The notes beneath the pieces were generated by a model that saw only the letters and a list, made by a program, of their open reading frames with translations, made no database searches and was not told the DNA's origin. From contig JAXLZU010000001.1 of NCBI GenBank assembly GCA_046350735.1, positions 76,530-140,529 on the forward strand: DNA of 64,000 bases, in the 5' to 3' direction. The position numbers and the translations under genes were made by a program. Shown one piece after another: positions 4,436-47,516 of the stretch (position 1 is its first letter; each line of letters starts with the position of its first letter). Source of the DNA: Candidatus Saccharimonadota bacterium. GTDB lineage: Bacteria > Patescibacteriota > Saccharimonadia > CAILAD01 > BJGX01.

Positions 4436-4558
4436 TTGAATATACCAATATGACCAATACGTTTATAGTATGTTCCTCCTGTAACTATAGAGGATAATCC
4501 GATATTAATGGGTGTATAATACAAGAATTAATCAAAGTTGAGTGAAGGAGTATTGTTT

Positions 4559-5470
4559 ATGTCAAATTACTCGAATGTAGTGCTATCTGATGACCCTAAT
4601 ACCCCATGGTATCGAATATTTGCGTATATTGAGCCACAAAGCAGAGTTCTTGATGTTGGTTGTAGCGCCGGTAATTTTGGCAAGGCACTAATCGATCAGA
4701 AAAAGTGTATGGTTGATGGTATTGAAGTTAACAAACAAGATTCTATAAAAGCTAAAAAGAAACTGATGAATGTATATAATATTAATATTGAGAACACAGA
4801 TTTTAAAAACTTACCAGGTGACTATCGATATATATATTTTGGCGATGTTATTGAGCATTTAGTTGATCCAGTTTCAGTGTTGAAAAAAATTACAAAATTA
4901 TTATCCAAAGATGGTGAAATATTATTTTCTATACCAAATATGGCACATCTTTCTGTTCGATTAATGCTTTTAAGTGGCGAATTCAATTATGCTAAAACAG
5001 GATTACTCGATAATACTCACCTTCACTTTTATACGTTTAAGGAGATTGAAAGAGTATTTAATGAAGCAGGGTATGAGATTGTTTATCAAAAACCAATTAT
5101 TAAAGAGTATCCCCGTAAACTACTAGCTAAAGAATTAAAGAAAGTCGGTCTTAAAGGTGAAGAAACTTTCTTTAAAAGAGCATTGAATTCTGATGCTGTG
5201 GTTTGGCAGTATGTAGGAGCTGCAAGAAGATCAAACACACCCAAAGAAGCAGCTGTTCTACCGGCCATTAGCCCTGGATTAGAATTTGAAGAATTATATG
5301 CAACAACAGCTCAAGAATGCAGAGATATTATTTTAGAAAATAAGCAATTACAAGAACAATACCAAACTGCACTCAAAGTGATTAGACAAAAAAATAAAGA
5401 ACTACACACGTCTAAAAATCTCCCTTATTTTGTTATGAAAAAAATAAAAAACAGACTAAAGAGCACTTAG
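4559..5470 (+). CDS. class I SAM-dependent methyltransferase with C-terminal coiled-coil tail
   Basis: Motif I VLDVGCSAGNFG. AAGGAG RBS 8 nt upstream of the ATG at 4559. C-terminal heptad-like KQLQEQYQTALKVIRQKNKEL. Confidence 0.8.
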   Translation: MSNYSNVVLSDDPNTPWYRIFAYIEPQSRVLDVGCSAGNFGKALIDQKKCMVDGIEVNKQDSIKAKKKLMNVYNINIENTDFKNLPGDYRYIYFGDVIEHLVDPVSVLKKITKLLSKDGEILFSIPNMAHLSVRLMLLSGEFNYAKTGLLDNTHLHFYTFKEIERVFNEAGYEIVYQKPIIKEYPRKLLAKELKKVGLKGEETFFKRALNSDAVVWQYVGAARRSNTPKEAAVLPAISPGLEFEELYATTAQECRDIILENKQLQEQYQTALKVIRQKNKELHTSKNLPYFVMKKIKNRLKST

Positions 5471-5471
5471 T

Positions 5472-7433
5472 ATGGTTTCTGATAAAAATTCTGTCTCACA
5501 TCAAAATATCTTAGAAGTTAATAACGAGTTCTTTAATGAGGATGAAAGCAAAGAAATATATGTACGAAATAAAAATGATCCTCGATTAATTTCATTCTAC
5601 TTGCCACAATTTTACCCTATCCCCGAGAATGACAAGAGTTGGGGTAAAGGGTTTACGGAATGGACAAATGTTAGAAAAGCTGAGCCACGCTTCGTAGGCC
5701 ATCAACAACCATTTTTACCTCTGAACGATGACTATTACGATCTGAGAGATCCGAATGTTTTAGAACAACAAATACGATTAGCCAAACAATATGGTATCTT
5801 TGGTTTTTGCTTTTACCACTATTGGTTCAGTGGAAAAAGACTACTAGATGTGCCTCTAGATATCTTTTTACAAAATAAGCAATGGGACTTTGGTTTTATG
5901 ATTTGTTGGGCAAATGAGAATTGGACAAAACGCTGGGATGGCAGAGAAGAAGAAATAATTATCGCCCAAAAATATAGAGATAATGACCCCTTAGAATTCA
6001 TCAAGTCTGTTGAACATATAATAATTGATCCGCGCTATATAAGAAACAATAACAAGCCTGTGCTAATGGTTTATAGAGCACCTGACCTGAGGGATCCACT
6101 TGCTTACTCAAATATCTGGAGAAAATATTTGCGCGATAAATACTCAATTGAGATTGAACTTGTAACCACAATAGGTTTTGATTTGGTCGATCCACGATCG
6201 TATGGCTTTGATAAGGCCTTGGATTTTGAACCACTAACGTATGGTTTAAAAAAGTCTGGTAATGACGGTTCCCAGGTAATATCACGAAAGGTTTCAAGAA
6301 AACTAATTGATAAAGAATTTACTGGTAATGTTGAGGATTATAGGAATATAGCATTGGACGATAAACAGTATGAAGTATTTAATTTCCCAAACTACAAGGC
6401 TATTATGCCGTCGTGGGATAATGATGCCAGAAGAAAAGGAAAGGGATTTACTATGCACAATTCAACTCCTGATGTTTACGCACATTGGCTAAAAAATACA
6501 ATAAAAATAGAAACTAGTAATAATAAACAAGAACCTCTGATATTTATTAACGCCTGGAATGAATGGGGTGAAGGGGCGGTCCTAGAGCCCACAAAACATT
6601 TTGGATATGCTAACTTGTTAAGAACAGCTGAAATACTGTCGCAGTATAATAAGTCAAAGAGGAATCTAGATAATTTCCCTCTCTATAGAATTCGAAGAGG
6701 GGGAGATAGTAAGTTGGCTGTGGTAATTCACCTGGAAGGTGGACTCAACTGGGATGTTTTAAACGAGAAGCTTGGTTATTTAAAGAATATAAAACATGAT
6801 CTATTTTTTTATATATCTAAAGACTTAGATATTAGTGAATCTTATATTCAACAACTCTACCCAAATTCAAACATTTATTACTTTAGCCCTAATGAATATA
6901 TTATGATGCGCCTTATGCATGTAGGTAGACGATTACTAGAATGTGGATATGATAATCTCCTCAATATTGCATCGTCACAAAGCATCAATTTGGATAAGGG
7001 CATTGAGGATATCTTACCGAGTAAACAGCAAGCATTCAAAGCTTATAAGACACTACAGAATCATTCAAACAGCGCTATAGGGGTTACGGAGCATTCATCG
7101 CCACTTACTAATACTGTCGTTAAAGACAATCCAAAGATTAAAGAGGTTTTGTCGAATATATACAACCCAACTCTTGCGGACATTATTTTAGAAGAGACAT
7201 TTGGTTTCGGAAAGTACAAAAATTATTCTTTTTGGGTTAATCTGCCTACAATCAGCCAACTATTAAATTTTTATTTTCTACCTTATGATTTTCTTAACCC
7301 CACCGAAGGAACTCCTGATGCACTTAATGATGCGTTATGGAATGTTTTTTGGATGCTACCAAAGCTTAGAGGAGGATCTATATACAGCATCGGTAAGGGC
7401 GACATTATGACAGAAAAGTTTGAAGTAATGTAA
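5472..7433 (+). CDS. WbsX-like glycan-processing protein (Glyco_tran_WbsX family)
   Basis: N-terminal FYLPQFYPIPENDKSWGKGFTEWTNV is the hallmark of the WbsX family. 653 aa. Confidence 0.72.
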   Translation: MVSDKNSVSHQNILEVNNEFFNEDESKEIYVRNKNDPRLISFYLPQFYPIPENDKSWGKGFTEWTNVRKAEPRFVGHQQPFLPLNDDYYDLRDPNVLEQQIRLAKQYGIFGFCFYHYWFSGKRLLDVPLDIFLQNKQWDFGFMICWANENWTKRWDGREEEIIIAQKYRDNDPLEFIKSVEHIIIDPRYIRNNNKPVLMVYRAPDLRDPLAYSNIWRKYLRDKYSIEIELVTTIGFDLVDPRSYGFDKALDFEPLTYGLKKSGNDGSQVISRKVSRKLIDKEFTGNVEDYRNIALDDKQYEVFNFPNYKAIMPSWDNDARRKGKGFTMHNSTPDVYAHWLKNTIKIETSNNKQEPLIFINAWNEWGEGAVLEPTKHFGYANLLRTAEILSQYNKSKRNLDNFPLYRIRRGGDSKLAVVIHLEGGLNWDVLNEKLGYLKNIKHDLFFYISKDLDISESYIQQLYPNSNIYYFSPNEYIMMRLMHVGRRLLECGYDNLLNIASSQSINLDKGIEDILPSKQQAFKAYKTLQNHSNSAIGVTEHSSPLTNTVVKDNPKIKEVLSNIYNPTLADIILEETFGFGKYKNYSFWVNLPTISQLLNFYFLPYDFLNPTEGTPDALNDALWNVFWMLPKLRGGSIYSIGKGDIMTEKFEVM

Positions 7434-7528: not shown

Positions 7529-8500
7529 ATGAAACAACCAACTGTAAGCGTGGTAGTACCAAATTGGAATGGCAAAGACATATTAGGTAAATGCCTAGAC
7601 TCGCTACAAACACAAAGCTACAGGCCAGCTGAGATTATTGTTGTAGAGAATGGTAGTATTGATGGCTCGGCCGAGTATATTGCCAAACACTATCCAGAAG
7701 TTGCGCTGATTGTAGAACCGGAAAATCTCGGGTTTGCAGGCGGAGTAAATGTTGGTATAAAAGCAGCCAAATCTGATTATATTTGGCTGTTTAATAACGA
7801 CGCGGTGGCGCAAAAAGATTGTTTGGCCAAACTAGTGGCTACAGCAGTAAAGAGCAACGCAGATATTACCTCTGCAGTTATTCTTAGCCAAGACGGTAAA
7901 AAGATAGATTCCGATGGAGATGTCTATACTATCTATGGGTTTCCTTACCCCAGACACCGTAACTTGGCAGCTAGCGAACTACCAAAGCAAGATGAACCTA
8001 TCTTTGCTGCTAGCGGCGGTGCTAGCCTGTATAAAGCATCGCTATTTACAGACATTGGCTACTTCGAAGAATCGTTCTTTGCGTATTACGAAGATGTAGA
8101 CTTAAGTATGCGTGCACAGTTGCAGAAAAAATCTCTTTGGCTTAGCCATAATGCCATTGTGTTACATGCCACCAGCCATACCAGTAATAAAATTCCCGGG
8201 TTCGGCAGAGAGATGGCAATTAGAAATAGTATATATATCTTTTGGCGTGATCTACCAAAAGGTGTACAGGGCAAAGTTTTTTGGCGATTCTTATGTGCCA
8301 ATTGGCGGCTTAGTTTGGTTTCGATACTCAAGGGACATCCATACAGAGTTTTACGGGCGCACTTTACTGCGTTGTTCCATACTCCACAATTACTAAAGGC
8401 AAGAAAAGAAATTCAGTCTAGCAAAAAAATGAGTGCCGAACAATTTCTCGGCCTTATTAGTAGAGAGAACCCGTTTAAAGTATTAAAGAGTCGCCAGTAA
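7529..8500 (+). CDS. GT2 glycosyltransferase
   Basis: VSVVVPNWNG...IVVENGSIDGS...LFNNDAV motifs. 323 aa. Confidence 0.85.
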   Translation: MKQPTVSVVVPNWNGKDILGKCLDSLQTQSYRPAEIIVVENGSIDGSAEYIAKHYPEVALIVEPENLGFAGGVNVGIKAAKSDYIWLFNNDAVAQKDCLAKLVATAVKSNADITSAVILSQDGKKIDSDGDVYTIYGFPYPRHRNLAASELPKQDEPIFAASGGASLYKASLFTDIGYFEESFFAYYEDVDLSMRAQLQKKSLWLSHNAIVLHATSHTSNKIPGFGREMAIRNSIYIFWRDLPKGVQGKVFWRFLCANWRLSLVSILKGHPYRVLRAHFTALFHTPQLLKARKEIQSSKKMSAEQFLGLISRENPFKVLKSRQ

Positions 8501-9336
8501 TGTTAAGCATTATTACGATTAACTACAATACCCAAAAGTTGCTCGAGGATTGCTTAAACTCTATTAAGCGATATATAAATATTGAGAGTTATGAAGTAAT
8601 AGTGGTAGATAACGCCTCAGAAGAATTTAGTGAGGCAGCATTAAAAAAGATTATTCCAGGTATTACTATAATTCACTCTAAAGAAAATCTTGGTTTTGCA
8701 AAAGCCAATAACTTGGCTGCCAAGCAAGCAAAAGGCGAGTATTTGTGGTTTTTAAATAGTGACACCAAGCTAAATAAAGACAGCAATATTAGCGTGCTAA
8801 TACAGTTTTTAGATTCGCACAAAGAATATGGCGCTGCCGCACCACTCGTACTCGATGCAAAAAATGTACCACAACAATATCAATATGGGTATTGGCCAGC
8901 GGTCTGGCGTATGATACTCGAAAAGCCAGTGAACGCTAGAGTATCTAAGAATCCACTCCATGCCAAGTACTGGCGTTGGCTCAATGCAGACTATTTACCA
9001 TTGCAAAGTCGGGATGTCGACTGGGTAAGTGGTGCTGCTATGATGATACGCAAAAATGTGTTCAACGAGGTGGGTGGCTTTGAGGCTGAATACTTTTTGT
9101 ATTACGAAGATGTCGACTTGTGTCGCAAGTTGTGGGCCAACAAACAAAAGATTCGCTTCGTAAAAGATGCACAGATTATACATTTAGAAGGTGGCAGCGA
9201 GGGCGATATGTCTAAGAAAAAACTTATTGCTTATCATAGCCAAGACATTTACTTTAAGCGCTGGGGGAGTCCGGTTTCGCGATTTGCATTACACAAGGTT
9301 CGTCGACCGTACGCTAAGAGATGGCAGAAGAAATAA
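8500..9336 (+). CDS. GT2 glycosyltransferase
   Basis: LSIITINYNT...VIVVDNAS...FLNSDT motifs. Start overlaps upstream stop (TAATG). Confidence 0.85.
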   Translation: MLSIITINYNTQKLLEDCLNSIKRYINIESYEVIVVDNASEEFSEAALKKIIPGITIIHSKENLGFAKANNLAAKQAKGEYLWFLNSDTKLNKDSNISVLIQFLDSHKEYGAAAPLVLDAKNVPQQYQYGYWPAVWRMILEKPVNARVSKNPLHAKYWRWLNADYLPLQSRDVDWVSGAAMMIRKNVFNEVGGFEAEYFLYYEDVDLCRKLWANKQKIRFVKDAQIIHLEGGSEGDMSKKKLIAYHSQDIYFKRWGSPVSRFALHKVRRPYAKRWQKK

Positions 9337-16434: not shown

Positions 16435-17670
16435 CTAGGTAAGTAGATATTGATTGCCAAGAAGCCAAGGACTGTCTGGAGTTTGAGGACGATAACGAAT
16501 GTGCTGCTGAATCATTTCTACTTGCTTCGTATACATATCTCTTGGTGTAGCGCGGGTAATACTAAGGTGTCGTCGTACTAAGCGTTGAATGTCTTTGAAG
16601 AAACCAGAATAATCACCTGAGCGATACTCAGTACTAGCAAGCGTCATGGTAATAATTCGCAATAGTAACCGTTGCTGGTCTTTTTCTGCATGTTTTAGCT
16701 CGGAGAGAAGCATATCTAACTCACCTAGTTGTTGTTCGGCAAGTAGAGCTTCAACAAGCATTTCTGCAGCAATTGGTGAGTCACTCTGAGTAAGGCAATG
16801 GTGGTTTATCCAGACCTTTGCCCAGAAGTAGGGCTTTAGACCGAGTCTGTCGAGTCGCTTGGTAGCTTCTCTCATAAAAGCATTAACACGTTTTCTCCCT
16901 ACGCGTACACTACTCAGCATAGTCTGCAGATCCCAAATATCGGCCGCGATTGTTTCGGCAAAGGTGGTACAATTAAGATAACGATAACGCAGAGACTTCT
17001 CAGAGAGAGCATCGTACTCTAGTTGCAATCGCAGGCGAGCAATAGCTGCTGTTAGTCGAGCAGCATTGGCACTAGGGTTGTATCGAGCGAGCGAATCGCG
17101 AAACCCAACAGAATTTTCTACTCGACTGCGCGCATCTTTTCTAAGAAGTGTTCTACACAGCTGCATATCTGATGCAACTAGCCTAAGCAAATCAGCTTCG
17201 CCACTAGAATCTTGCAAGAGTTTAAACCAATCATCGAGCAGGCGCTGTCGAACTTCTTGCACAGTTTCTCTACGAGTTGTATCAAGATCAGAACGCAATG
17301 CAATATTTCTACTACCTTGAATACCAGAACGAATACCAGACTCTACCGTCACAAAGGTCTCATGCTCACTAAGTGGTGGTCGAGCCCTAACGTAAATAAG
17401 CACTTCACCAACCAAATCCATATCTTTAATGTCTGATACTTTGGTAACTACCCAATACTTCTCAGAGATATTTCTACCAGGCCTTACTAGGATCTGTCTA
17501 GCTCGAATATTGCGCGAACGCAGCTTTTTACCAGTAATAATTGGCTGTACCTCAACCCCAAGAGCATAGCTAAAGCGCATATCTTCTTGCACTGTCAATG
17601 TTTCTCCCTTTGTAGGTTCTCTCTTGAGAGCGAACGTATAATACCATGTAACACCTTGACTTTCAACCAT
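16435..17670 (-). CDS. hypothetical protein (411 aa, Arg-rich, no recognisable domain)
   Basis: Long ORF with coding-like composition, GC-richer than surroundings. No motif I can assign. Confidence 0.55.
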   Translation of the reverse strand: MVESQGVTWYYTFALKREPTKGETLTVQEDMRFSYALGVEVQPIITGKKLRSRNIRARQILVRPGRNISEKYWVVTKVSDIKDMDLVGEVLIYVRARPPLSEHETFVTVESGIRSGIQGSRNIALRSDLDTTRRETVQEVRQRLLDDWFKLLQDSSGEADLLRLVASDMQLCRTLLRKDARSRVENSVGFRDSLARYNPSANAARLTAAIARLRLQLEYDALSEKSLRYRYLNCTTFAETIAADIWDLQTMLSSVRVGRKRVNAFMREATKRLDRLGLKPYFWAKVWINHHCLTQSDSPIAAEMLVEALLAEQQLGELDMLLSELKHAEKDQQRLLLRIITMTLASTEYRSGDYSGFFKDIQRLVRRHLSITRATPRDMYTKQVEMIQQHIRYRPQTPDSPWLLGNQYLLT

Positions 17671-17719: not shown

Positions 17720-18034
17720 ATGAAAAAAGATACTCGAAAATATATTGATAGGCGGGATTATCTAATTGCTGCAGTTGCCAAAAGACGTAAGGTACTAAAA
17801 GAAAAATCAGTACAATACAAAGGTGGTAAGTGCGAGCTATGTGGCTACGAGAAATGTATTGAAGCCTTGGATTTTCATCATAAAGATCCAAAAACAAAGA
17901 AATTTGGCATTAGCCATAAAGGATATACTCGCAGCTGGCAGGATGTGCAAGGCGAACTAAATAAGTGTGTTTTGGTTTGTGCAAATTGCCATAGAGAGAT
18001 AGAAGCAGGAGTATCAAACATTAATCCGGGGTAG
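17720..18034 (+). CDS. HNH endonuclease
   Basis: CELCGY...HHKDP...CANCH (HNH/zinc-ribbon motif). Stop codon lies inside the 5' acceptor stem of the following tRNA. Confidence 0.85.
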   Translation: MKKDTRKYIDRRDYLIAAVAKRRKVLKEKSVQYKGGKCELCGYEKCIEALDFHHKDPKTKKFGISHKGYTRSWQDVQGELNKCVLVCANCHREIEAGVSNINPG

Positions 18035-18336
18035 CTCAGTGGTAGAGCAGTTGGCTGTAAATTGATGCAGCGTTTAGTGGTAACACTAAGATGAAAATAG
18101 GGTGAATTGCGGGAAGCCTAAGTGAGAATATGGTAATCCGCAGCCAAGCCAAGAAGAGCAAAGGTTTCTTGGAAGGTTCAGAGACTAGAGGGTGAGACTC
18201 AACAATAATCTCTCAGATAGCGCCCTACATCCGTCATGGCGGATGATGATATAGTCCATTCCCATTTGAAAATTTGGGGTAGATGTAACCAATTGGTCGC
18301 TGGTTCGAATCCAGTCCCCGGAGCCATAGTACTTAT
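18025..18336 (+). tRNA. tRNA-Asn(GUU) interrupted by a group I intron in the anticodon loop
   Basis: 5' exon 18025-18058 TCCGGGGTAGCTCAGTGGTAGAGCAGTTGGCTGT. 3' exon 18296-18336 TAACCAATTGGTCGCTGGTTCGAATCCAGTCCCCGGAGCCA. Joined sequence gives a 75-nt cloverleaf with anticodon loop CUGUUAA (GUU), closely resembling bacterial tRNA-Asn. CCA is encoded. Confidence 0.85.
18059..18295 (+). mobile_element. group I self-splicing intron (ORF-less), inserted between anticodon-loop positions 35 and 36
   Basis: 5' exon ends in U and pairs with internal guide GCAGC (18068-18072) to form P1 with a U.G wobble. Intron ends in G. Core elements UUGCGGGAAGCC, UAUGGUAAUCCGCAGCCAAG, P7 5' strand CAGAGACUAGA and P7 3' strand AUAUAGUCC match the Tetrahymena-type group I core. 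Confidence 0.8.
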
Positions 18337-18350
18337 GCTTAAAAGACCCA

Positions 18351-18376
18351 ACCGGGTCTTTTTTGATATGATGTTG
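18351..18376 (+). terminator. rho-independent terminator after tRNA-Asn
   Basis: AAGACCC-AACC-GGGTCTT hairpin plus TTTTT. Confidence 0.6.
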
Positions 18377-18378
18377 TC

Positions 18379-19128
18379 ATGTCAATTTACGAGGCCATTA
18401 TTTTTGACCTAGATGGCACTGCCATAAGCAGTGAGCCCAATGCTGTTCCTTCTGACAAAGTAGTTAAGGCAGTTGAAGATGCACAAAAATCGATGCATTT
18501 GTGTGCAGCGACTGGCCGCTCAATAACAAATTCAAAGTATCTTTTAGATGCTCTAAAACTAAATAGTCCATGTGTAATTTCGGCTGGCACCCAAATTGTT
18601 AACCCCAAAACTGAAGAGATTTTGTGGGAGGCAACGATTGACGAAAAAGATGTGGAAAGTGTTTTAGAAGTTTGCAAGCCTTACAATTTTGAAATTTTGT
18701 CTGGAACAGAACTTGTTGGCGAAGGTGCTGCTGCAGCCGAGAGAAAGCCCCATACAACTAACGTGCTATACATTATGGCTGTAAGCAAAACCGATGCTGA
18801 AGTAATATCAAAAGCTTTATCAGGAATTAAAGGCATATCATCAAGCGAAGTGCCGTCATGGGTAGAACATGGAGTTGATATTCACATTACTAACAAAGAA
18901 GCCACGAAAGAGCACGCTGTTGAGAAATTACTAGATATTATTGGCGTAGATAAAGACAAAGTTATTGGAGTTGGTGATGCCGACAACGATGTGCACTTAT
19001 TTAAGTCTGTAGGGCATAAAGTTGCAATGGGCAATGCAACTGATAGACTAAAAAAACTTGCAGACGAAGTAGCACCGTCGGTCACAGAAGACGGACTGGC
19101 TGCAATTATTCAGAAGTACTCAACATAA
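18379..19128 (+). CDS. Cof-type HAD-IIB phosphatase
   Basis: IFDLDGT motif I. GDADNDVHLF motif IV. 249 aa. Confidence 0.85.
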   Translation: MSIYEAIIFDLDGTAISSEPNAVPSDKVVKAVEDAQKSMHLCAATGRSITNSKYLLDALKLNSPCVISAGTQIVNPKTEEILWEATIDEKDVESVLEVCKPYNFEILSGTELVGEGAAAAERKPHTTNVLYIMAVSKTDAEVISKALSGIKGISSSEVPSWVEHGVDIHITNKEATKEHAVEKLLDIIGVDKDKVIGVGDADNDVHLFKSVGHKVAMGNATDRLKKLADEVAPSVTEDGLAAIIQKYST

Positions 19129-19134
19129 AATTAG

Positions 19135-19173
19135 TTCTAACTTCCATCACCACTCGGAGCCAAAGTTAGAACC
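19135..19173. repeat. palindromic repeat R1 (GTTCTAACTT-loop-AAGTTAGAAC), REP-like/attC-like family
   Basis: 10-bp perfect inverted repeat flanking loop CCATCACCACTCGGAGCC. Related copies at 20066, 20747, 22510 and 23338. Confidence 0.6.
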
Positions 19174-19181
19174 AAACACAA

Positions 19182-19209
19182 CAGAGGTAAATGCCTCTGT
19201 TTTTGTTTT
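19182..19209 (+). terminator. rho-independent terminator
   Basis: CAGAGG-TAAATG-CCTCTG hairpin plus TTTTTGTTTT. Confidence 0.55.
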
Positions 19210-19258
19210 AGGGTGGCTATAGCGAATAATGTTAGAACTAATTTGATATGATGGATTT

Positions 19259-19666
19259 ATGAAAATATTCGTATCAGGGCAAATAGACGAAAAAGAAGAA
19301 ATTAATGTAATATACCAAAAGCTTCAGCAAGCTGGTCATGAAGTTACGCACGATTGGACTAAGACTGATGGTATTGGCGACAAACTAAAAAACCAAAAAG
19401 AATCTGGCTTACGTGCAGCAAAAGATATTACAGGAGTTGTAGAGGCTGACATATATATTCTAGTAAGCAATAACAAAAAACCAGGCAAAGGAATGTATGT
19501 AGAGCTAGGAGCAGCATTAGCGCTGAATGAAGCACTTGGCAAACCTCAGATTTTTACAATCGGTAATAGAAACCATCTTTCTATTTTCTATTTGCATCCA
19601 GCGGTAACGCACTTAAAGACAATTGAAGATGTACTACAACAACTAGATGGAACAAAACAGGTATAA
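19259..19666 (+). CDS. nucleoside 2-deoxyribosyltransferase-like protein
   Basis: MKIFVSGQI... 135 aa, Rossmann-like NDT-type fold signature. Paralogous to the next gene. Confidence 0.55.
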   Translation: MKIFVSGQIDEKEEINVIYQKLQQAGHEVTHDWTKTDGIGDKLKNQKESGLRAAKDITGVVEADIYILVSNNKKPGKGMYVELGAALALNEALGKPQIFTIGNRNHLSIFYLHPAVTHLKTIEDVLQQLDGTKQV

Positions 19667-19669
19667 AAA

Positions 19670-20055
19670 GTGAAAGTAGTCATCTGTAGCTCAACTAGGC
19701 ATCACGATACAGCCGAGTATTACGCAAAGGAAATAAAAGAAGCTGGTATAGAGGTATTTTGTCCACCAATAGTATCGAGTACAGAAAAATGGAGACGACT
19801 GAGTGATAAACAAAAGAAAAAAGAGTTAAAAAACTCATTGAAGAACACTTCAACGAGATTAGCTCATCGGATGCAATTTTAATTATCAACAAAAATAACT
19901 ATATCGGAACAAGTGTAAATATAGAGATTGGCTATGCTGCTGCAAAGTCAAAACGCATCTTTGCCATAGAACCTGACGCTGACTTATCACGCTCAACCTT
20001 AATTGAAGTAGTTATTAACGGCCCACAACAAATCAAAGAACTATTGGCTGATTGA
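19670..20055 (+). pseudogene. nucleoside 2-deoxyribosyltransferase-like gene disrupted by a frameshift in an A-rich tract
   Basis: Frame 2 ORF 19670-19882 (MKVVICSSTRHH...) stops. The +1 frame continues from about 19810 as ...VKKLIEEHFNEISSSDAILIINKNNYIGTSVNIEIGYAAAKSKRIFAIEPD... to the stop at 20055. The shift lies within AAAAGAAAAAAGAGTTAAAAAACTC (19812-19836). Confidence 0.6.
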
Positions 20056-20065
20056 ACTTAATAGT

Positions 20066-20104
20066 GTTTCTAACTTCCATTACCACCCGGAGCCAAGTAA
20101 AAAC
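20066..20104. repeat. palindromic repeat R2 (degenerate right arm)
   Basis: GTTTCTAACTTCCATTACCACCCGGAGCCAAGTAAAAAC. Loop is near-identical to R1. Confidence 0.5.
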
Positions 20105-20117
20105 ACCAGAAGATTCT
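20093..20117 (+). terminator. rho-independent terminator
   Basis: ACACCAGAA-GA-TTCTGGTGT hairpin plus TTTTT. Confidence 0.55.
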
Positions 20118-20323
20118 GGTGTTTTTACTTGGTTTCGAGAATTGAATTGAGAACCAGGTAACCGCAAAGCGGTTGGTTCGTAAGGAGCGAAAGGATGGCA
20201 GAAGCCGTAGGCTTTGAGAACCGAAGTGACGGAATAGCTAGCGAAGCGCAGCGTCATCAATACCTAGAGTAGTAGTAACCGCCCAAAAAAACTATATAAG
20301 TCATATTTGCTATAATTAAACAA

Positions 20324-20737
20324 ATGCAAAATAATCAAAGATCAACCAATAGTGGATCTAACGGCACCGAAGTAGAATATTCTGCAGATGTCGATATAAT
20401 AGGAACAAACAAAATTTCACCTAACACCAAGAGTACTAATGTTCCACTGATACTTACTATTCTTAGTATTGTAGCAGTACCTCTTAACTATATAATTCTT
20501 GCTGTAACAGGAAAGCTAATTAGCGGAAATATAGTATTAGGTTTTATTGCATTAATACCATTCCTTAGTCCATTACCGCTTGCTATCACGGCACTTGTAG
20601 TTAATAGAAACAATACTAAATTTCACAAACTTACAGTTATTTTAGCTATTATAGAAATTATCTTGTATTCGCTATTACTTGGCATGCTTATTGCGTTTAT
20701 GTTATTAATTCGTACTTGGGTCGGAACTGGTGGTTGA
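20324..20737 (+). CDS. small integral membrane protein (hypothetical)
   Basis: 137 aa with 3-4 hydrophobic helices. Confidence 0.55.
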   Translation: MQNNQRSTNSGSNGTEVEYSADVDIIGTNKISPNTKSTNVPLILTILSIVAVPLNYIILAVTGKLISGNIVLGFIALIPFLSPLPLAITALVVNRNNTKFHKLTVILAIIEIILYSLLLGMLIAFMLLIRTWVGTGG

Positions 20738-20746
20738 TTCCATAGG

Positions 20747-20778
20747 ACTAACTTCCGCTACCAATCGAAGCTAGACCA
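20747..20778. repeat. palindromic repeat R3 (degenerate)
   Basis: GACTAACTTCCGCTACCAATCGAAGCTAGACC shares the CTAACTTCC left arm. Confidence 0.4.
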
Positions 20779-20839
20779 ACTATCTTACAGAGTATCCAGT
20801 AAGCATTCATACTACTAGATTTTGTTATAATCAACTTGA

Positions 20840-21247
20840 ATGAACATAAAAAACGTATCAATAAATACTCTTAAGTGGCTGATCGCTATCTTTTATATAT
20901 CGGCTTTGTCTGTACAGTTTCTAGTGTTGCTAAAAGTGATCCCTTACTACTGGGTAAATGGTGGTAAGTCAGCTTCCTATGAATCTCAACTAGTGCAGTC
21001 GCTAATTAGCATTGTCATTATTTTTATACTATATATATTTGTATGGAAGTTATTGTATCAAAAAGGACTTATCAAAAAGTGGAAGTTACGAGCGCTATAT
21101 GTAATTACATTCTTCTGGCTTTTGGGCTTCTTAATGCAACTTGCTGGCACAGAATTTGAACGGTATTTTTTGTCATTATTCTTGTTGTTGGGTGTTGTAT
21201 CTCACGGGATGCTCGTCCTGCGAGCTCGCTCCATTGTTAGTTTGTGA
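20840..21247 (+). CDS. small integral membrane protein (hypothetical)
   Basis: 135 aa with 4 predicted TM helices. Confidence 0.55.
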   Translation: MNIKNVSINTLKWLIAIFYISALSVQFLVLLKVIPYYWVNGGKSASYESQLVQSLISIVIIFILYIFVWKLLYQKGLIKKWKLRALYVITFFWLLGFLMQLAGTEFERYFLSLFLLLGVVSHGMLVLRARSIVSL

Positions 21248-21282
21248 CCTGTATGCTGAGCCAAGGTACTTAAAAAGACCTA

Positions 21283-22428
21283 TTGGGTCATTTTTCTAAA
21301 ATAGGCATTCAAACTTTAAAAGACTCAAAAAGGTTCTATTCTGTTAAGATATATTTAATGAGTACAAAAGCACACACTACAATCCCAACCAAGAAAGAAG
21401 TAGATGCAGAGCTACCTATAGAACCACAAGCTCAGAAAATTCATTGGTGGGTTTTTGCTTTAGTCGGTCTGTTGGTTTTAGAATTTGTTACAATAATTGT
21501 ACTAGCACTTGTATGGTGGCCATTACATATTTTTTATAAGTCTGTCCCAGTTACTGTTAAAAGTACTCTACGATCAGTAAAAATAGTTGCAGTTGGTGAT
21601 ATTAGTTGTGGTCCAGATGATCCAAAGAGAAATGGTATCGATCCAACCAGGTGCCAAGATAATAAAGTTTTTGATTTAATAAAAACAATTAATCCAGATA
21701 AGATACTATTGCTTGGTGATATTCAGTATTCAACAGGTAGTATCGAAGCATTTAATAACACATTTAATACAAACTGGGGTCAATTAAAATCTAAGTTTTT
21801 ACCTACCCCCGGGAATCATGAGTATGGTACTAAAAACGCCCAAGGATACTTTACGTATATGAATGATGGTAATAATAATGGTATCGCTGGTGATAATAAC
21901 TTAGGGTATTATGCTTCAGAAATTAATAATTGGAGTATTTATTCTCTTGATTCAAACTGTCCAGAAACCAACGATTGTTCTATTGGATCAAAGCAAATAC
22001 AGTGGTTAGAAAGTCAGCTAAGTAATGAGAGTAATACTTGTCAGTTGGCCTTCTGGCATCATCCACAGTTTAGTTCTGGTAAACACAGTGCAGATTCTAG
22101 TCAAATAAATAGATTACCTGATGCGTGGAAGATGCTGCAAGACAAAAAGGCAGAAATTGTATTGAATGGCCACGATCATATCTATGAAAGATTTGACAAG
22201 CAGTTATTGGATGGCCAGAAGAGTGTATATGGTATACAGGAATTTGTGGTTGGGAGTGGAGGATATTCTCATTATGAAAGAATAGCTAATAGACCCAATA
22301 GTGCATTCTTTAATAACACAGACTTTGGAGTTTTGGTGCTTGAATTATATCAGGGATCGTATAATTGGAAGTTTATTAATCTTAGCGGACAAGTATTAGA
22401 TGAAGGGGCCGAAACTTGTAACAAATAG
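21283..22428 (+). CDS. membrane-anchored metallophosphoesterase (calcineurin-like / purple-acid-phosphatase-like)
   Basis: VAVGDISCG...LLGDIQY...GNHEY...GHDHIYER motifs. Alternative start at the ATG at 21357 (MSTKAHTT...) is possible. Confidence 0.82.
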   Translation: MGHFSKIGIQTLKDSKRFYSVKIYLMSTKAHTTIPTKKEVDAELPIEPQAQKIHWWVFALVGLLVLEFVTIIVLALVWWPLHIFYKSVPVTVKSTLRSVKIVAVGDISCGPDDPKRNGIDPTRCQDNKVFDLIKTINPDKILLLGDIQYSTGSIEAFNNTFNTNWGQLKSKFLPTPGNHEYGTKNAQGYFTYMNDGNNNGIAGDNNLGYYASEINNWSIYSLDSNCPETNDCSIGSKQIQWLESQLSNESNTCQLAFWHHPQFSSGKHSADSSQINRLPDAWKMLQDKKAEIVLNGHDHIYERFDKQLLDGQKSVYGIQEFVVGSGGYSHYERIANRPNSAFFNNTDFGVLVLELYQGSYNWKFINLSGQVLDEGAETCNK

Positions 22429-22509
22429 CTTTATAGCCATGATTCTGAATAATAACAATATCTAGTTTATAAGATAGTGGATGTTATTATTACAATTATA
22501 TAATAATGG

Positions 22510-22546
22510 TCTTAACTTCTATCGCTATCCAAAACCAAAGTTATAA
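22510..22546. repeat. palindromic repeat R4
   Basis: TCTTAACTT-CTATCGCTATCCAAAACCA-AAGTTATAA. Confidence 0.45.
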
Positions 22547-22594
22547 AGATAATTCTTACGTAGCATATAAAAGTCGCTAAGAGTTTTGACACAA

Positions 22595-23335
22595 TTAAAT
22601 GAGAAATAATAAGCCAATAACTGGCAAGGTAAACATTAGAAGTGTGGATACAGTAACTACTTTAGTAGTGACTGAATTTGGGAAGGTAAAGTCTACTCCA
22701 AGAGATAAGATACTAAAGTCGTACAAGAAATGAATAAGTATTGGTAGCCACAGGGTTCCACTAAGAATCAAAATAAAGTAAAAATTTAGCCCCATACATA
22801 CTGTTCCTGCTACTTGTGTGGCGGTTTTACGAATATCTTGGCCATTAAAATAATTTACAAAATGGAGAGCACCAAAAATAAGCGAAGAAAAAACACCAAC
22901 AAGAATTACCGAGTAGCCTGCATTTTGCAAGGCGCTAACAGCAATACCTCTTACCAATAGTTCTTCTGAAAATCCAACAATGAGAGTGGCCATAGACAAA
23001 AATAGTAGTCGTTTTTTGTTATGCAAGGTGTCTCTCAATAAACTAAAACGAGCAAAAATTGAGATAATTGTAACAATTGGGATAACCAACAGTATTTGCT
23101 GGCTAATTTGAGGAGAGTACTTAAAAACTTTAGGTACCCAGTGCAAGCTAATGGCAAATGTTGTAAGTAAAAGAGTCGTAATACCTATTGGATAGATTAT
23201 TCCTCTTTTTATGTTTTTGACATTCTTGCCGATTTCAGTGTATTTTACACCAAATATTTTTGTAAAAATAAAAATTAACAATACATAGAAAAAACAGATG
23301 GAAATAGCTGTAAACATTACATCTATTGTACACAA
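22595..23335 (-). CDS. CPBP-family (CAAX/Abi) intramembrane metalloprotease
   Basis: SEELLVRG (EExxxR), FGALHF (FxxxH) and HFLYD motifs. Multiple TM helices. Confidence 0.85.
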   Translation of the reverse strand: MCTIDVMFTAISICFFYVLLIFIFTKIFGVKYTEIGKNVKNIKRGIIYPIGITTLLLTTFAISLHWVPKVFKYSPQISQQILLVIPIVTIISIFARFSLLRDTLHNKKRLLFLSMATLIVGFSEELLVRGIAVSALQNAGYSVILVGVFSSLIFGALHFVNYFNGQDIRKTATQVAGTVCMGLNFYFILILSGTLWLPILIHFLYDFSILSLGVDFTFPNSVTTKVVTVSTLLMFTLPVIGLLFLI

Positions 23336-23337
23336 TA

Positions 23338-23376
23338 CGTTCTAACTTTTATTACTATATTCAGTTAAAGTTAGAA
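23338..23376. repeat. palindromic repeat R5 (GTTCTAACTT-loop-AAGTTAGAAC)
   Basis: Arms identical to R1. Followed, as at R1, by a conserved block ...AATTTGATATGAT... directly preceding a start codon. Confidence 0.6.
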
Positions 23377-23417
23377 CCAAATACAAGTATATAGAATTAA
23401 TTTGATATGATTATTTT

Positions 23418-23843
23418 ATGAAAATTAAGAGTAAAAGTAATAAGAAGCAAGAATTATTCTTAAGTATGGCACTTGGGGTATTGCTCTACTCAGTGGTGCT
23501 TGGATTTTTTAACGACTATACAACTATTCTGCACACTACCTCTTACTCCGTTACATTTCTGTTGGCAATTGTAATGCAAATACTTACATATCTTACTTTT
23601 GCAGTAAAAGATATAGCCAAAACATGGTTTAAATCAAAGGACTCCAAAGTATATAAGTTTGCTTTGGTTTTTACCATATGGCTAATACTGTTTTTATCTA
23701 AGTTTGTGTTTCTCTGGGTAATAAGCTTGGTATTTAGAGAACAAGTGCATATTAGTGGCTTTGTTGGACTACTTTTTATTGTGGCAATTCTGACAATTCT
23801 TCAGCAGCTATTTGAGCTGGCTTATTATAAATTGGCCGATTAA
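23418..23843 (+). CDS. small integral membrane protein (hypothetical)
   Basis: 141 aa with 4 predicted TM helices. Confidence 0.55.
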   Translation: MKIKSKSNKKQELFLSMALGVLLYSVVLGFFNDYTTILHTTSYSVTFLLAIVMQILTYLTFAVKDIAKTWFKSKDSKVYKFALVFTIWLILFLSKFVFLWVISLVFREQVHISGFVGLLFIVAILTILQQLFELAYYKLAD

Positions 23844-23945
23844 TTCTAGCACTCTTTCTAGCTTATACTGCAATTAAATGAATTGCAGAGTGTTTTTTAA
23901 CAGGCAATACGGTTAATTTGTTATAATAAAAATAAGATATACAAT

Positions 23946-24404
23946 ATGCAAAATATTACACCCAACTTATGGTTTGATGGTAACGCAAAAGAAGCAGTAG
24001 ATTTCTATACCTCAATCTTTACAGATAGCAAGATATTTTCTACAGAGTACTATCCTAATAGCCAAAAAGAAGGCTTGGCTGATTTTCAGAAAGAGTTGGC
24101 TGGTAAAGTACTTACTATAGAGTTTGAGCTAAATGGTTTACGTTTTGTTGCAATTAATGCTGGGCCAGAGTTTAAGTTTAATGAAGCGGTATCATTTTCT
24201 ATTACCTGCCAAAATCAGAAAGAAATAGATTATTATTGGGAGAAGCTCTCGAGCGTACCAGAATCTGAGCAATGTGGTTGGTGTAAAGATAAGTATGGAC
24301 TTAGTTGGCAGGTTGTACCAAAAAATATGCAACAGCTAATGCAGAAGCCAGATGCCTTTAAGACATTAATGCAACAAAAGAAGATTGTAATAAGCGAATA
24401 TTAA
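23946..24404 (+). CDS. VOC-superfamily protein (PhnB / 3-demethylubiquinone-9 3-methyltransferase-like domain)
   Basis: N-terminal ITPNLWFDGNAKEAVDFY and C-terminal DKYGLSWQVVP. Confidence 0.78.
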   Translation: MQNITPNLWFDGNAKEAVDFYTSIFTDSKIFSTEYYPNSQKEGLADFQKELAGKVLTIEFELNGLRFVAINAGPEFKFNEAVSFSITCQNQKEIDYYWEKLSSVPESEQCGWCKDKYGLSWQVVPKNMQQLMQKPDAFKTLMQQKKIVISEY

Positions 24405-24430
24405 CTGAATAATTTTGTTATTATAAAACT

Positions 24431-24712
24431 ATGAGTGTAGCTACAAAAAAACAAATCTCTGGCGGGGTAGTGCATACATTACCAACTGATCTAAAAAATG
24501 AATTACTCTCGTCCCCAGATGCACTAAAAGAATGGGAAGATATTACACCTTTAGCGCGCAATGAATGGATATGCTGGACAATTTCTGTAAAAAAGCCAGA
24601 GACCAGAAAACAACATGTTAATAGGGTGGTAGAGGAGTTAGTAACTGGTAAGCGTCGACCTTGTTGTTGGGCAGGCTGTCCTCACCGAAAACGTAATAGT
24701 CAACTTGGTTAA
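24431..24712 (+). CDS. YdeI/OmdA-family protein
   Basis: LPTDLKNELLSSPDALKEWEDITPLARNEWICWTISVKKPETR matches the YdeI/OmpD-associated domain. Confidence 0.72.
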   Translation: MSVATKKQISGGVVHTLPTDLKNELLSSPDALKEWEDITPLARNEWICWTISVKKPETRKQHVNRVVEELVTGKRRPCCWAGCPHRKRNSQLG

Positions 24713-24778
24713 TAATTTTCTTATCTTAGATTAACAACTTTTCCTCAATTTGTATGAGTATTACGATATAGTAGGTAC

Positions 24779-25126
24779 ATGGATAAAGTAAGTCAACTTA
24801 TTAACAAGCAAAGTGCAGAACGTCAAGACGAATTAAATCGAGTACGCACGATTGTTCAAAATAACTTTCCTCAAGCCACTGAAAAAATTAGTTACGGAAT
24901 GCCAGCTTTTTATTACAACGGTAAATTGTTATTATGTTACGCTGCACAAAAAAGTCATTATGGTCTTTACCCAACATCCCTACCAATAAAAGAGCTAGAA
25001 AAAGAGCTGAAACCGTACGATGTTTCTAAGGGGGCAATTCGTTACACAAAAGAAAATCGTATTACTGAAAACCTATTAATAAAACTAACTAAAATTAGAG
25101 TTAAACAGATAGTTGCAAATATCTGA
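24779..25126 (+). CDS. DUF1801 (YdhG-like) protein
   Basis: YGMPAFYYNGKLLLCYAAQKSHYGLYP. Confidence 0.72.
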   Translation: MDKVSQLINKQSAERQDELNRVRTIVQNNFPQATEKISYGMPAFYYNGKLLLCYAAQKSHYGLYPTSLPIKELEKELKPYDVSKGAIRYTKENRITENLLIKLTKIRVKQIVANI

Positions 25127-25159
25127 GTATAAAATAAAAGCTTTAACGGAGAAAAATAT

Positions 25160-25318
25160 ATGGCTATAACACCAAACTGTGATGTGTGCGGCAAAGAGCT
25201 TGATGAATATGGTGCCATATTATTTGGGCCACCAAGCAATAATAAGAGCGAGAAGTTTCATATTTGCAAGAATTGCTATACTCATCTTATAAACCTTTTG
25301 AGAATTAAGCATAAGTAG
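25160..25318 (+). CDS. small zinc-ribbon protein (52 aa), not in ORF track
   Basis: MAITPNCDVCGKEL...HICKNCYTHL has two CxxC pairs. Fills an otherwise empty 200-nt gap. Confidence 0.4.
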   Translation: MAITPNCDVCGKELDEYGAILFGPPSNNKSEKFHICKNCYTHLINLLRIKHK

Positions 25319-25333
25319 TCTATAGTAATACAT

Positions 25334-25762
25334 ATGGAAACATTACCAAGTTTTATCAAGGAACAATCGCTTGGCGTTTTGTGTACAAGTGATGAAAATT
25401 GTAATCCGTCTGGCGCAACAGTCTTTTTTGTAGAAAAAGATCAAAAACTCTATATCATGACCCACGAAAAAAGTTTAAAAGTACAGCATATTAAGAATAA
25501 TCCTAATGTTTGTTTTGTGATTGCTGATCCTATCCATTATCATCAGGCACAGCTTTACGCGACAGCAAAAATAGCAGAGAACCCGGGGGATTACTTACCT
25601 CTAGTAGAAGAGGTAATAAAAAAATATTCTGAAAGAACAGAAGATTTTATACCTTATGTACATATAAAGAACGAAGGAGATGCTCCGGTAATATTAGAGT
25701 TAACCTTAAAGCAAAATCGGTCTTATCAGCCAGATGAAGGTTTGGTGGATAAAAAACTTTAA
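25334..25762 (+). CDS. PNPOx-like FMN-binding split-barrel protein
   Basis: Pyridoxamine-5'-phosphate-oxidase-like / general stress protein 26 type sequence. 142 aa. Confidence 0.72.
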   Translation: METLPSFIKEQSLGVLCTSDENCNPSGATVFFVEKDQKLYIMTHEKSLKVQHIKNNPNVCFVIADPIHYHQAQLYATAKIAENPGDYLPLVEEVIKKYSERTEDFIPYVHIKNEGDAPVILELTLKQNRSYQPDEGLVDKKL

Positions 25763-28754: not shown

Positions 28755-28780
28755 CCCAATATATTCTCTCTAACTTCACA

Positions 28781-40312: not shown

Positions 40313-40747
40313 TTATTGGCTATTGAATGACTCTTTGTAGTTCGATAGAAATGCATTTGTAATCATTTGTTTTAATGTTTCAATATCTATATCCTTTAAT
40401 GATTTAATATAAAGACATCCTTTACCTACTTTATGTGGTCCAAGTTTTTTGAGTAACTCATTATTGGTGTGCATAAGATCATACATAACAAGGCCATAAA
40501 TCGTTAAAGCTTGCTTACGTGGAGAAAAGCCTACACGCAATGAGTCTCCCTCGCGCCCAGATTGGTACTTATAATGATAACTACCATAACCTACTATACT
40601 TGAGCCCCACATGACTGGTTCTTCGCCAGTGCATACTTTGAATATTTCGAGCAATTGTATACTGTCTTGTTTTCGAGCTTCATTTTCAATAGCATTTATA
40701 AAATCTTTAACACTTGAATTATTCTTCTGGGTCTTATTCTCTGTCAT
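40313..40747 (-). CDS. DUF1801 (YdhG-like) protein
   Basis: ...VMWGSSIVGYGSYHYKYQSGREGD... second DUF1801 paralog in the window. Confidence 0.68.
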   Translation of the reverse strand: MTENKTQKNNSSVKDFINAIENEARKQDSIQLLEIFKVCTGEEPVMWGSSIVGYGSYHYKYQSGREGDSLRVGFSPRKQALTIYGLVMYDLMHTNNELLKKLGPHKVGKGCLYIKSLKDIDIETLKQMITNAFLSNYKESFNSQ

Positions 40748-41884: not shown

Positions 41885-41960
41885 GGGCCCGTAGCTCAGT
41901 GGTTAGAGCAGTCGGCTCATAACCGATTGGTCCCTGGTTCAAATCCAGGCGGGCCCACCA
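41885..41960 (+). tRNA. tRNA with CAU anticodon, elongator type; resembles tRNA-Ile2 (lysidine) more than tRNA-Met
   Basis: GGGCCCGTAGCTCAGTGGTTAGAGCAGTCGGCTCATAACCGATTGGTCCCTGGTTCAAATCCAGGCGGGCCCACCA. D-loop and variable region resemble E. coli ileX. C4-G69 and C5-G68 present. Confidence 0.85.
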
Positions 41961-47439: not shown

Positions 47440-47516
47440 TGGTGGCTGGAGCTGGAATTGAACCAGCGACCTCAGGCTTATGAGTCCCGCGCTCTAACCA
47501 ACTGAGCTATCCAGCC
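47440..47516 (-). tRNA. tRNA with CAU anticodon, elongator tRNA-Met-like
   Basis: Minus-strand GGCTGGATAGCTCAGTTGGTTAGAGCGCGGGACTCATAAGCCTGAGGTCGCTGGTTCAATTCCAGCTCCAGCCACCA. D-loop AGTTGGTTA as in elongator Met. One A-G mismatch at the base of the anticodon stem. Confidence 0.78.

Follow-up and report, generated by a model that had tools for sequence, protein, structure and literature searches.

A putative tRNA-Asn-anchored array of gene cassettes bounded by a 31-nt repeat in a Candidatus Saccharimonadota genome

This study concerns five short repeats, R1 to R5, in a stretch of 64,000 nucleotides from a Candidatus Saccharimonadota bacterium (assembly GCA_046350735.1, contig JAXLZU010000001.1, positions 76,530 to 140,529 of the forward strand), which is referred to below as the window. 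The repeats lie among small accessory genes downstream of a tRNA-Asn(GTT) gene, and a preliminary description made from the sequence had taken them for palindromic elements, either of the integron attC type or of the type of repetitive extragenic palindromes and bacterial interspersed mosaic elements (REP/BIME). The results of our analysis indicated that they are probably att-type junction sites of a cassette array anchored at the tRNA-Asn gene, at which site-specific recombination would proceed through a 9-nt core with the aid of a trans-acting recombinase. This reading is based on the anatomy of the site, the identity of its core with the tRNA end, its restriction to one locus, the turnover and shuffling of cassettes with breakpoints at the core, and the decay of sites with distance from the tRNA gene.

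A 31-nt site with a core identical to the 3' end of tRNA-Asn

The anchor gene and the five repeats are as follows.

18025-18326, plus strand: tRNA-Asn(GTT), the anchor of the array (exon 1, 18025-18058; group I intron, 18059-18285; exon 2, 18286-18326)
19132-19162, plus strand: R1, 31-nt site (TAGTTCTAACTTCCATCACCAC followed by TCGGAGCCA), 30/31 positions as in the family consensus
20065-20095, plus strand: R2, 31-nt site (TGTTTCTAACTTCCATTACCACCCGGAGCCA), 28/31 as in the consensus, its core being the 5' arm of the next hairpin
20743-20773, plus strand: R3, degenerate site, 22/31 as in the consensus
22507-22537, plus strand: R4, degenerate site, 21/31 as in the consensus
23337-23367, plus strand: R5, the most decayed site, 18/31 as in the consensus, with the core destroyed (TTCAGTTA) and the 10-bp palindrome arms intact

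A profile built from the five repeats and searched over the window returned exactly R1 to R5, all on the plus strand, with the runners-up at E>1, and a 26-mer derived from R1 had two matches in the window at up to three mismatches compared with 0.00 expected. The five repeats reported in the preliminary description are, thus, real and homologous, while the additional arm fragment that it had placed at 28766-28778 was a mere 9-mer (TCTAACTTC) that the profile search missed and that was indistinguishable from chance. All five repeats lie within 4.3 kb and less than 5 kb downstream of tRNA-Asn(GTT). The neighbouring tRNA-Asn, which is split by a group I intron, had been recognised correctly, but it had been missed that the repeat ends in the 3' end of this tRNA.

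The 31-nt site, TAGTTCTAACTTCCATCACCAC-CCGGAGCCA, consists of a conserved 22-nt arm, borne by the cassette, and a 9-nt core that is identical to the 3' end of tRNA-Asn. The tRNA ends in ...CCCCGGAGCCA (exon 2 in ...CCAGTCCCCGGAGCCA), R2 and most family members read ...CACCCGGAGCCA, and R1 reads ...CACTCGGAGCCA; comparison of these ends indicated that all well-preserved repeats terminate in the 3' end sequence of the neighbouring tRNA. The consensus of 38 copies from 17 loci was TAGTTCTAACTTCCATCACCAC-CC-GGAGCCA, in which positions 1-22 and 25-31 were near-invariant and positions 23-24 variable, the GGAGCCA of the core being invariant. Within each of the 17 loci, all copies of the site shared one orientation.

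A degenerate 24-mer was scanned over one genome per species (185,579 species) and matched only five metagenome-assembled genomes (MAGs) of Saccharibacteria/Saccharimonadia, at one locus each. A 17-mer scan of metagenomes yielded 97 stretches, ca. 16 of which run through GGAGCCA and are true members of the family; about 80 of the 97 did not extend into GGAGCCA and were discarded as chance matches. In the window and in the loci L001, L021 (the same as L002), L081, L095, L104 and L106, the array starts directly at the CCA of tRNA-Asn. The site was 28-31/31 identical between genomes whose flanking glycoside hydrolase has 52-64% protein identity. No conserved RNA fold was found for the repeats, the 22-nt arm is invariant in sequence without covariation, and an Rfam search with the repeats and with the D element described below returned no family, only chance miRNA-like matches to a hairpin.

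Several metagenome contigs begin or end at a copy of the site: L095 ends exactly at CCA, and L015 and L036 start at a copy. Such ends could reflect branching of the assembly graph at the repeat, caused by strain heterogeneity or by simple repeat collapse.

Turnover, shuffling and polarity of the arrays

The upstream flanks of L081 and L106 showed ca. 79-82% nucleotide identity with that of the window over 3.3 kb. This homology stops at the CCA of the tRNA in L081 and just before the ATG of the first cassette in L106, and no cassette open reading frame (ORF) was common to the window and L081 or L106; the HAD-type hydrolase gene of cassette 1 of the window is absent from both of these syntenic loci. 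The comparison of gene content between the repeats of relatives, which had been proposed as a check, thus gave different cassette genes beyond a shared upstream flank, and with the homology breaking at the repeat core it bears out the variable, cassette-like region next to tRNA-Asn that had been suggested.

Sharp breakpoints and transposed units were found in further loci. L053 was 95% identical to window positions 19570-20096 through R2 up to ...GGAGCCAA, one base past CCA, and unrelated beyond, so that it holds cassette 2 at 95% nucleotide identity with another downstream neighbour. L014 and L075 were 100% identical from CGGAGCCA on and unrelated to the left of it. The ORF-less D cassette is the first after the tRNA in L081 and the third in the window, the class C head (see below) follows R1 in the window and the tRNA in L095, and the neighbours of a GNAT cassette differ between L021, L075 and L082. 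These breakpoints and this shuffling suggest that the sites are functional for recombination.

The further a site ranked from the tRNA, the lower was its identity with the consensus (five arrays pooled; Spearman -0.74, p 4e-4; within-array permutation, p 0.002). This fall in site quality is compatible with new cassettes entering beside the tRNA while older junctions decay. The sites followed the orientation of the tRNA despite inverted cargo, as seen at the CPBP gene of the window, a peptidase S51 gene (minus strand) in L106 and a gene for a 203-aa protein in L081. Since the orientation of the sites was independent of that of the cargo gene, it argues for a role at the DNA level rather than in the 3' untranslated region (3'-UTR).

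Anatomy of the cassettes

Each cassette starts with a head, made up of a terminator and an extended -10 element placed 7-8 nt before the ATG, continues with what is usually a single ORF and closes with the 31-nt site. At 14 junctions, the upstream ORF terminates at the very TAG that forms positions 1-3 of the site. The clearest array was that of L001, where the tRNA ends in ...GGAGCCA and is followed by the trailer TTGCACTTATACTTAAACGAC, a hairpin with a T-run, TGTTATGAT, ca. 7 nt and the ATG; the unit ends with a stop codon inside TAGTTCTAAC...GGAGCCA, and then the same trailer begins the next of five rounds with one gene each.

Four classes of head were found after CCA, each of which follows a copy of the site in some genomes and the tRNA itself in others. 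The class A head is the tRNA's own trailer, terminator and -10 element; the class B head is a ca. 100-nt unit starting with GCAATAATTCCAGATAGAACGCC; the class C head starts with AAGTTAGAACC; and the class D head is a hairpin followed by a ca. 200-nt ORF-less element that ends in a longer pseudo-tRNA-Asn 3' half. The heads and promoter-like elements of the window are as follows.

18327-18378, plus strand: class A head, with the trailer TAGTACTTATGCTTAAAAGACCC, a terminator hairpin, a T-run and an extended -10 element (TGATATGAT) 7 nt before the ATG
19163-19258, plus strand: class C head, with AAGTTAGAACCAAACACAA, a terminator at 19180-19201, a second GTTAGAAC at 19231 and an extended -10 element 7 nt before the ATG
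18363-18381, 19243-19261, 20307-20326, 20823-20842, 23402-23420 and 24415-24433: TGNTATRAT-to-ATG elements read from the window sequence

The class A head of the window also follows copies of the site in L001, L003, L106, L053 and L104, and its class C head follows the CCA of tRNA-Asn in L095 with 90.8% identity over 87 nt. Two features pointed out earlier were present, namely the solitary GTTAGAAC at 19231 and the block TTTGATATGAT upstream of start codons, and a further copy of the block was found at 18362 directly after the tRNA. The inverted repeat of GTTAGAAC was considered as a right arm of the whole family and rejected; among 46 heads, a match at 7 or more of 8 positions was seen in eight, all of class B or C, and these heads are not independent of each other.

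TGNTATRAT was found 7-8 nt before the ATG at six array genes that had no Shine-Dalgarno sequence, with terminator hairpins in front of these elements; a generic sigma-70 scan misses these elements. Since the -10 element is only 7-8 nt from the ATG and no Shine-Dalgarno sequence precedes it, the array genes are probably transcribed as leaderless mRNAs, as far as can be judged from sequence.

Folding and position of the window repeats

R1 and R5 had been said to share perfect arms around an 18-nt loop. Perfect 10-bp arms (GTTCTAACTT/AAGTTAGAAC) were confirmed in R1 (19134-19172) and R5 (23339-23377), and the loop measured 19 nt. Folding as DNA hairpins gave -6.0 kcal/mol for R1 (z -4.5) and -6.4 kcal/mol for R5 (z -3.4), while R2, R3 and R4 formed no hairpin (z +1.0, -1.8 and -0.8, respectively); the core of R2 is part of a 24-bp hairpin. 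The designation as palindromic elements, therefore, suits two of the five repeats and not the family. The 39-nt palindrome at 19134-19172 is made up of R1 and the class C head, and such a palindrome arises solely at junctions of a site with a class C head, namely at R1, R5 and one copy in L081. It is, thus, a property of one junction type rather than of the family.

Four of the five repeats had also been placed immediately 3' of a gene or gene pair. This held for R1, R2 and R3, which begin 3-9 nt after a stop codon, but R4 lies 78 nt from one, between convergent genes, and R5 is located where a gene on the minus strand has its 5' end. When R5 was compared with R1 (23349-23367 vs 19144-19162), the arms and near flanks were identical at 29 of 31 positions and the loop at ca. 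7 of 19, and eight of the nine loop cytosines of R1 were T in R5. This divergence of the loop, a single case, is compatible with either selection on the arms or a strand-biased C-to-T change in an exposed hairpin loop.

Proposed mechanism and observations against it

Based on these results, we propose that a cassette, probably as an excised circle, would use its core to recombine either with the core of the tRNA-Asn end or with that of another site. Insertion would regenerate tRNA-Asn and would occur mainly next to it, and older cassettes would be shifted distally, where their sites would decay. The recombinase would be encoded outside the array and act in trans.

Several observations weigh against this proposal. 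No integrase, resolvase, DDE or Y1 recombinase was found among the window ORFs of at least 110 aa by a Pfam scan, which left out DnaK and LepA as these were identified by eye, and none was found in the ORFs flanking the arrays of the related loci. Searches for the site as an attP gave only chance 17-mer matches in IMG/VR, none of which extended, only terminator-like matches in the INPHARED phages and no match in the PLSDB plasmids, and no contig with terminal overlaps representing a circular cassette was found. The crossover was not placeable within the core. Moreover, the 9-nt core together with the conserved heads of 50-100 nt might serve homologous recombination after natural transformation, and since the sequences compared were mostly MAG or metagenome contigs, some rearrangements may be assembly artefacts at repeats.

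A large serine recombinase (Resolvase, Recombinase and Zn_ribbon domains) is encoded next to tRNA-Asn in L108/L109 and was considered as a candidate enzyme. Neither a 31-nt site nor a partial tRNA-Asn was found in the 19 kb downstream of it in L115, the extended version of the L108/L109 contig, and the candidate was rejected.

Alternative explanations

The array might be made up of scars of tRNA-Asn islands of the tycheposon or P4 type, whose integrases and interiors were deleted, so that the genes between the repeats would be leftovers and not mobile units. Tandem integration at tRNA islands, with partial tRNA repeats and decayed remnants, has been documented and provides a precedent (10.1101/2020.12.28.424599). 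The island contents at tRNA-Asn of related loci, i.e., a large serine recombinase with phage-like and defence genes in L108/L115 and metal resistance in L110, mark this gene as a hotspot, and the longer pseudo-tRNA-Asn 3' half of the D element is typical of a displaced tRNA end. However, random deletion would not keep leaving one ORF per unit, with the TAG of the site serving as the stop codon in the 14 junctions mentioned and the head regularly placed 7-8 nt from the ATG. The unit structure is repeated in at least 17 loci, the 22-nt arm, which is not derived from the tRNA, is near-identical across divergent species, whole units recur beside different neighbours, and no integrase fragments were seen in the arrays. 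We, therefore, consider the origin as island scars unlikely. A slightly smaller chance is given to the explanation that the repeat is a punctuation of expression, a 3'-UTR or insulator coupled to a terminator-promoter head, which was multiplied by duplication or by homologous recombination following natural transformation. In most copies, indeed, a stop codon immediately precedes the element and a terminator follows it, the conserved heads combine a terminator with a promoter, the R2 core lies in its 24-bp hairpin, and the conserved flanks of 80-130 nt would be usable as homology arms. Such a role, however, leaves unexplained why the element contains the 3' end of tRNA-Asn and why the array starts at that very tRNA in at least seven genomes. 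The orientation of the repeat follows the tRNA and not the adjacent gene, R5 stands at the 5' end of a gene, and the two hairpins among five copies, the lack of an Rfam match and the 22-nt arm without covariation do not point to a conserved RNA fold.

The two identities put forward in the preliminary description fared worse. Integron attC sites in a cluster lacking an integrase (CALIN) would account for small single-gene units in one orientation, and the arms GTTCTAAC and GTTAGAAC match the consensus quoted in that description, RYYYAAC and GTTRRRY, at six of seven positions each. ORF-less and inverted cassettes are also known in integrons, which is a further point of agreement. Nevertheless, neither the window nor the related loci yielded an intI gene, the palindrome is confined to two of the five window copies and depends on the head that follows, and its stem is perfect, without extrahelical bases or bulges, in an element of 39 nt compared with 57-141 nt for attC. 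It is the sequence and not the structure that is conserved in the 38 near-invariant copies, the cassettes appear to have promoters of their own, and the anchor is a tRNA gene and not an attI site. An attC identity is, thus, highly improbable. Spread of a REP/BIME-type palindrome family by a REP-associated tyrosine transposase (RAYT), to which the short extragenic elements and the two palindromic copies would be suited, is hardly credible, because the copies occupy a single locus in one orientation in every genome examined, including each of the five MAGs of which all contigs were scanned, no Y1/RAYT transposase was found in the window, and the copies end in a tRNA-derived core.

Cargo of the window array

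The genes and cassettes of the array are as follows.

18379-19128, plus strand: cassette 1, HAD-type hydrolase, 249 aa (Pfam Hydrolase_3, E 1.6e-40)
19259-19666, plus strand: cassette 2, nucleoside 2-deoxyribosyltransferase-like gene (Pfam Nuc_deoxyrib_tr, E 1.7e-6)
19670-20055, plus strand: cassette 2, second reading frame, frameshifted (ORF list)
20096-20294, plus strand: ORF-less D cassette, with a terminator hairpin, a conserved structured segment and a decayed tRNA-Asn 3' half (ATCAATACCTAGAG, ca. 20258-20272)
20324-20737, plus strand: membrane protein, 137 aa, with TGCTATAAT 8 nt upstream of the ATG
20840-22428, plus strand: 135-aa membrane protein and metallophosphoesterase (21358-22428; Pfam Metallophos, E 8.4e-13)
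22595-23335, minus strand: CPBP/Rce1-like intramembrane protease, inverted cargo (Pfam Rce1-like, E 1e-16)
23368-25762, plus strand: distal accessory genes assigned by Pfam, i.e., 141 aa, 3-dmu-9_3-mt, OmdA, DUF1801, 52 aa and PNPOx

The frameshift in the second ORF of cassette 2 lies in an A-run (ca. 19815-19830); a 70-aa ORF is followed by a frame that stays open to the stop at 20055. The sites flanking the inverted CPBP gene keep the orientation of the tRNA and not that of the gene. The distal genes at 23368-25762 have -10 elements of their own and no recognisable sites, and are probably older cassettes; a copy of the site stands in front of a homologue of the 3-dmu gene in L015. The pair of OmdA/YdeI and DUF1801 genes (24431-25126 in the window) recurs downstream of tRNA-Asn in L001, L003, L030, L106 and L115, and the window contains another DUF1801 gene at 40313-40747. 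OmdA/YdeI and DUF1801 appear to be either frequent cargo or long-resident genes of the island.

The D cassette of the window matched copies in L081 (two), L003 and L030 with an nhmmer E value of 9.7e-54. Copies were located at 8487-8698 and 10044-10233 of L081, at 3953-4152 of L003, at 49-250 of the reverse complement of L030, and at 4520-4683, 5715-5921 and 6565-6761 of the reverse complement of L021. They share the stem GAACCAG..[CCGGC GAA GCCGG]..CTGGTTC with one covarying pair and an insert of ca. 85 nt, and the tRNA-Asn 3' half of the element matches each host's own tRNA variant. Possible identities of the D element are a tRNA end that was displaced, a portion of a larger recombination site and a gene for a small RNA.

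According to Pfam, the cargo across the loci consists of small accessory enzymes and membrane proteins, with families such as HAD, nucleoside deoxyribosyltransferase-like, metallophosphoesterase, CPBP, NUDIX, GNAT, GDSL, histidine phosphatase, SDR, methyltransferase and 2'-5' RNA-ligase-like proteins. Downstream of a copy of the site in L052 and on the strand opposite to it, a gene at 441-1547 (minus strand) encodes a fusion of GNAT with an aminoglycoside-2''-adenylyltransferase-like (ANT(2'')) domain (Pfam E 7.7e-31), which looks like a resistance gene in an array of an uncultured member of Saccharibacteria.

The tRNA-Asn gene and its surroundings

The group I intron in the anticodon loop of tRNA-Asn is 227 nt long and matched Rfam Intron_gpI at 18048-18278 with 98.5 bits. 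ARAGORN misses this tRNA because the intron splits the gene; the exons of 34 and 41 nt correspond to the 75-nt tRNA-Asn that it found without an intron in L001, L002, L095, L104 and L108. Two genes of the upstream flank are as follows.

17720-18034, plus strand: free-standing HNH endonuclease gene, 104 aa (PHROG HNH endonuclease, E 5e-28)
16435-17670, minus strand: gene for a 411-aa protein, divergent upstream of tRNA-Asn and conserved in the syntenic flanks

The last 10 nt of the HNH gene overlap the 5' end of tRNA-Asn, and the gene belongs to the conserved upstream flank and not to the array. Both the HNH gene and the intron are present in the window, L081, L106 and L110, and neither occurs in L108, L021 and L095, where the tRNA is uninterrupted, which suggests that they form a pair of an intron and an external homing endonuclease. 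A small GIY-YIG gene additionally occurs near tRNA-Asn in L107 and L110. The order of the upstream flank common to the window, L081 and L106 is a GT4 gene, the glycoside hydrolase gene, the gene for the 411-aa protein, the HNH gene and the tRNA.

The 411-aa protein, which occupies the position of intI in an integron, was considered as a recombinase and rejected. It had 15 homologues among 5.8 billion proteins, belonged to no Pfam or PHROG family, and gave a low-confidence, mostly helical AlphaFold model (mean predicted local distance difference test score, pLDDT, 59) for which Foldseek found nothing in PDB below E 0.3; the gene also stands beside tRNA-Asn without an array in L108 and L110.

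In L115 (GCA_041906685.1, 2130-21500), which has no array, tRNA-Asn is followed by the large serine recombinase gene mentioned above and phage-like genes (terminase, ParB-methylase), and the island also contains a type I restriction-modification system and a Thoeris system (ThsA/ThsB). A metal-resistance island follows tRNA-Asn in L110, which has no array either. The tRNA-Asn gene is a general integration hotspot in this clade.

Outside the array, the window contains three tRNA(CAT) genes (41885-41960, 47440-47516 and 48410-48484); since they lie near tilS (49187-50518), one of them probably encodes tRNA-Ile2. Amid housekeeping genes, a gene at 52434-54374 encodes a protein of 646 aa whose Peptidase_S74 (endosialidase chaperone) domain is typical of phage tail fibres.

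Comparison with known systems and significance

The array shares with integrons the ordered arrangement, in one orientation and at a fixed chromosomal platform, of mostly single-gene cassettes with miscellaneous content. In both systems content and order vary between relatives and ORF-less and inverted cassettes occur, and the decay of sites suggests platform-proximal insertion in this array as well. In contrast to integrons, the platform is the 3' end of tRNA-Asn and not attI, with no integrase next to it; the site is a sequence-conserved 31-mer with a tRNA-derived core and not a structure-conserved folded attC; and each cassette has a predicted terminator and promoter of its own instead of relying on a common Pc. 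The likeness to REP/BIME is that the elements are short and extragenic and that some copies are palindromic, whereas the array sites are not dispersed, keep one orientation and are tied to a tRNA, with no RAYT in the window.

Some recombinase-less mobile units offer another comparison. The cis-mobilisable elements (CIMEs) of streptococcal integrative and conjugative elements (ICEs), the Xer-exploiting integrative mobile elements (IMEX) and the pdif modules of Acinetobacter plasmids are small gene modules that are bounded by sites, lack a recombinase, need an enzyme supplied from another locus and build up in tandem at a target; they use ICE att sites or dif-like XerC/XerD sites. The array shares with them units that are bounded by sites and carry no recombinase of their own, and it differs in its target, the end of a tRNA gene. 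They appear to be its nearest functional analogues. TTATGCTTAAA in the class A head may resemble a XerD arm; the dif site of the genome lies outside the window.

As in tRNA islands, tRNA-Asn stays intact and direct repeats of its 3' end bound the units, but no cassette contains an integrase or a replication module. Tycheposons of Prochlorococcus (10.1101/2020.12.28.424599) are similar in that they integrate at tRNA 3' ends, leave partial tRNA copies between units, have newcomers that push older units inward with decayed remnants distal, and inhabit a streamlined host with few other mobile elements. Tycheposons, however, span several kb and encode a tyrosine or large serine recombinase of their own, usually together with a replication module, whereas the units here measure 0.2-1.8 kb, contain one or two cargo genes and no recombination or replication genes, and have a common 22-nt arm that is not derived from the tRNA.

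We tentatively suggest that Saccharibacteria possess an undescribed, integron-like platform for gene capture, which may use the 3' end of tRNA-Asn as a docking point, a 31-nt sequence-specific site, self-expressed and probably leaderless single genes, and a recombinase encoded elsewhere and possibly of an unrecognised type. The literature searched contained no description of such arrays in Saccharibacteria. The gap left by the recombinase is concrete and testable, and the 31-nt site can serve as a probe for cassettes in metagenomes and is a candidate landing pad for genetic tools in those few Saccharibacteria that can be cultivated.

Saccharibacteria are ultra-small episymbionts of the Candidate Phyla Radiation, which have genomes of ca. 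1 Mb, rely on a bacterial host and are presumed to gain genes by few routes. If the suggestion is true, a dedicated array that collects and shuffles single accessory genes at one tRNA gene would be a main source of strain-level variation in these organisms. It would also represent a second, independent solution to the problem solved by integrons, and a useful one for comparison, in which the cassettes are self-expressed and the docking site is an essential gene that is rebuilt at each insertion.

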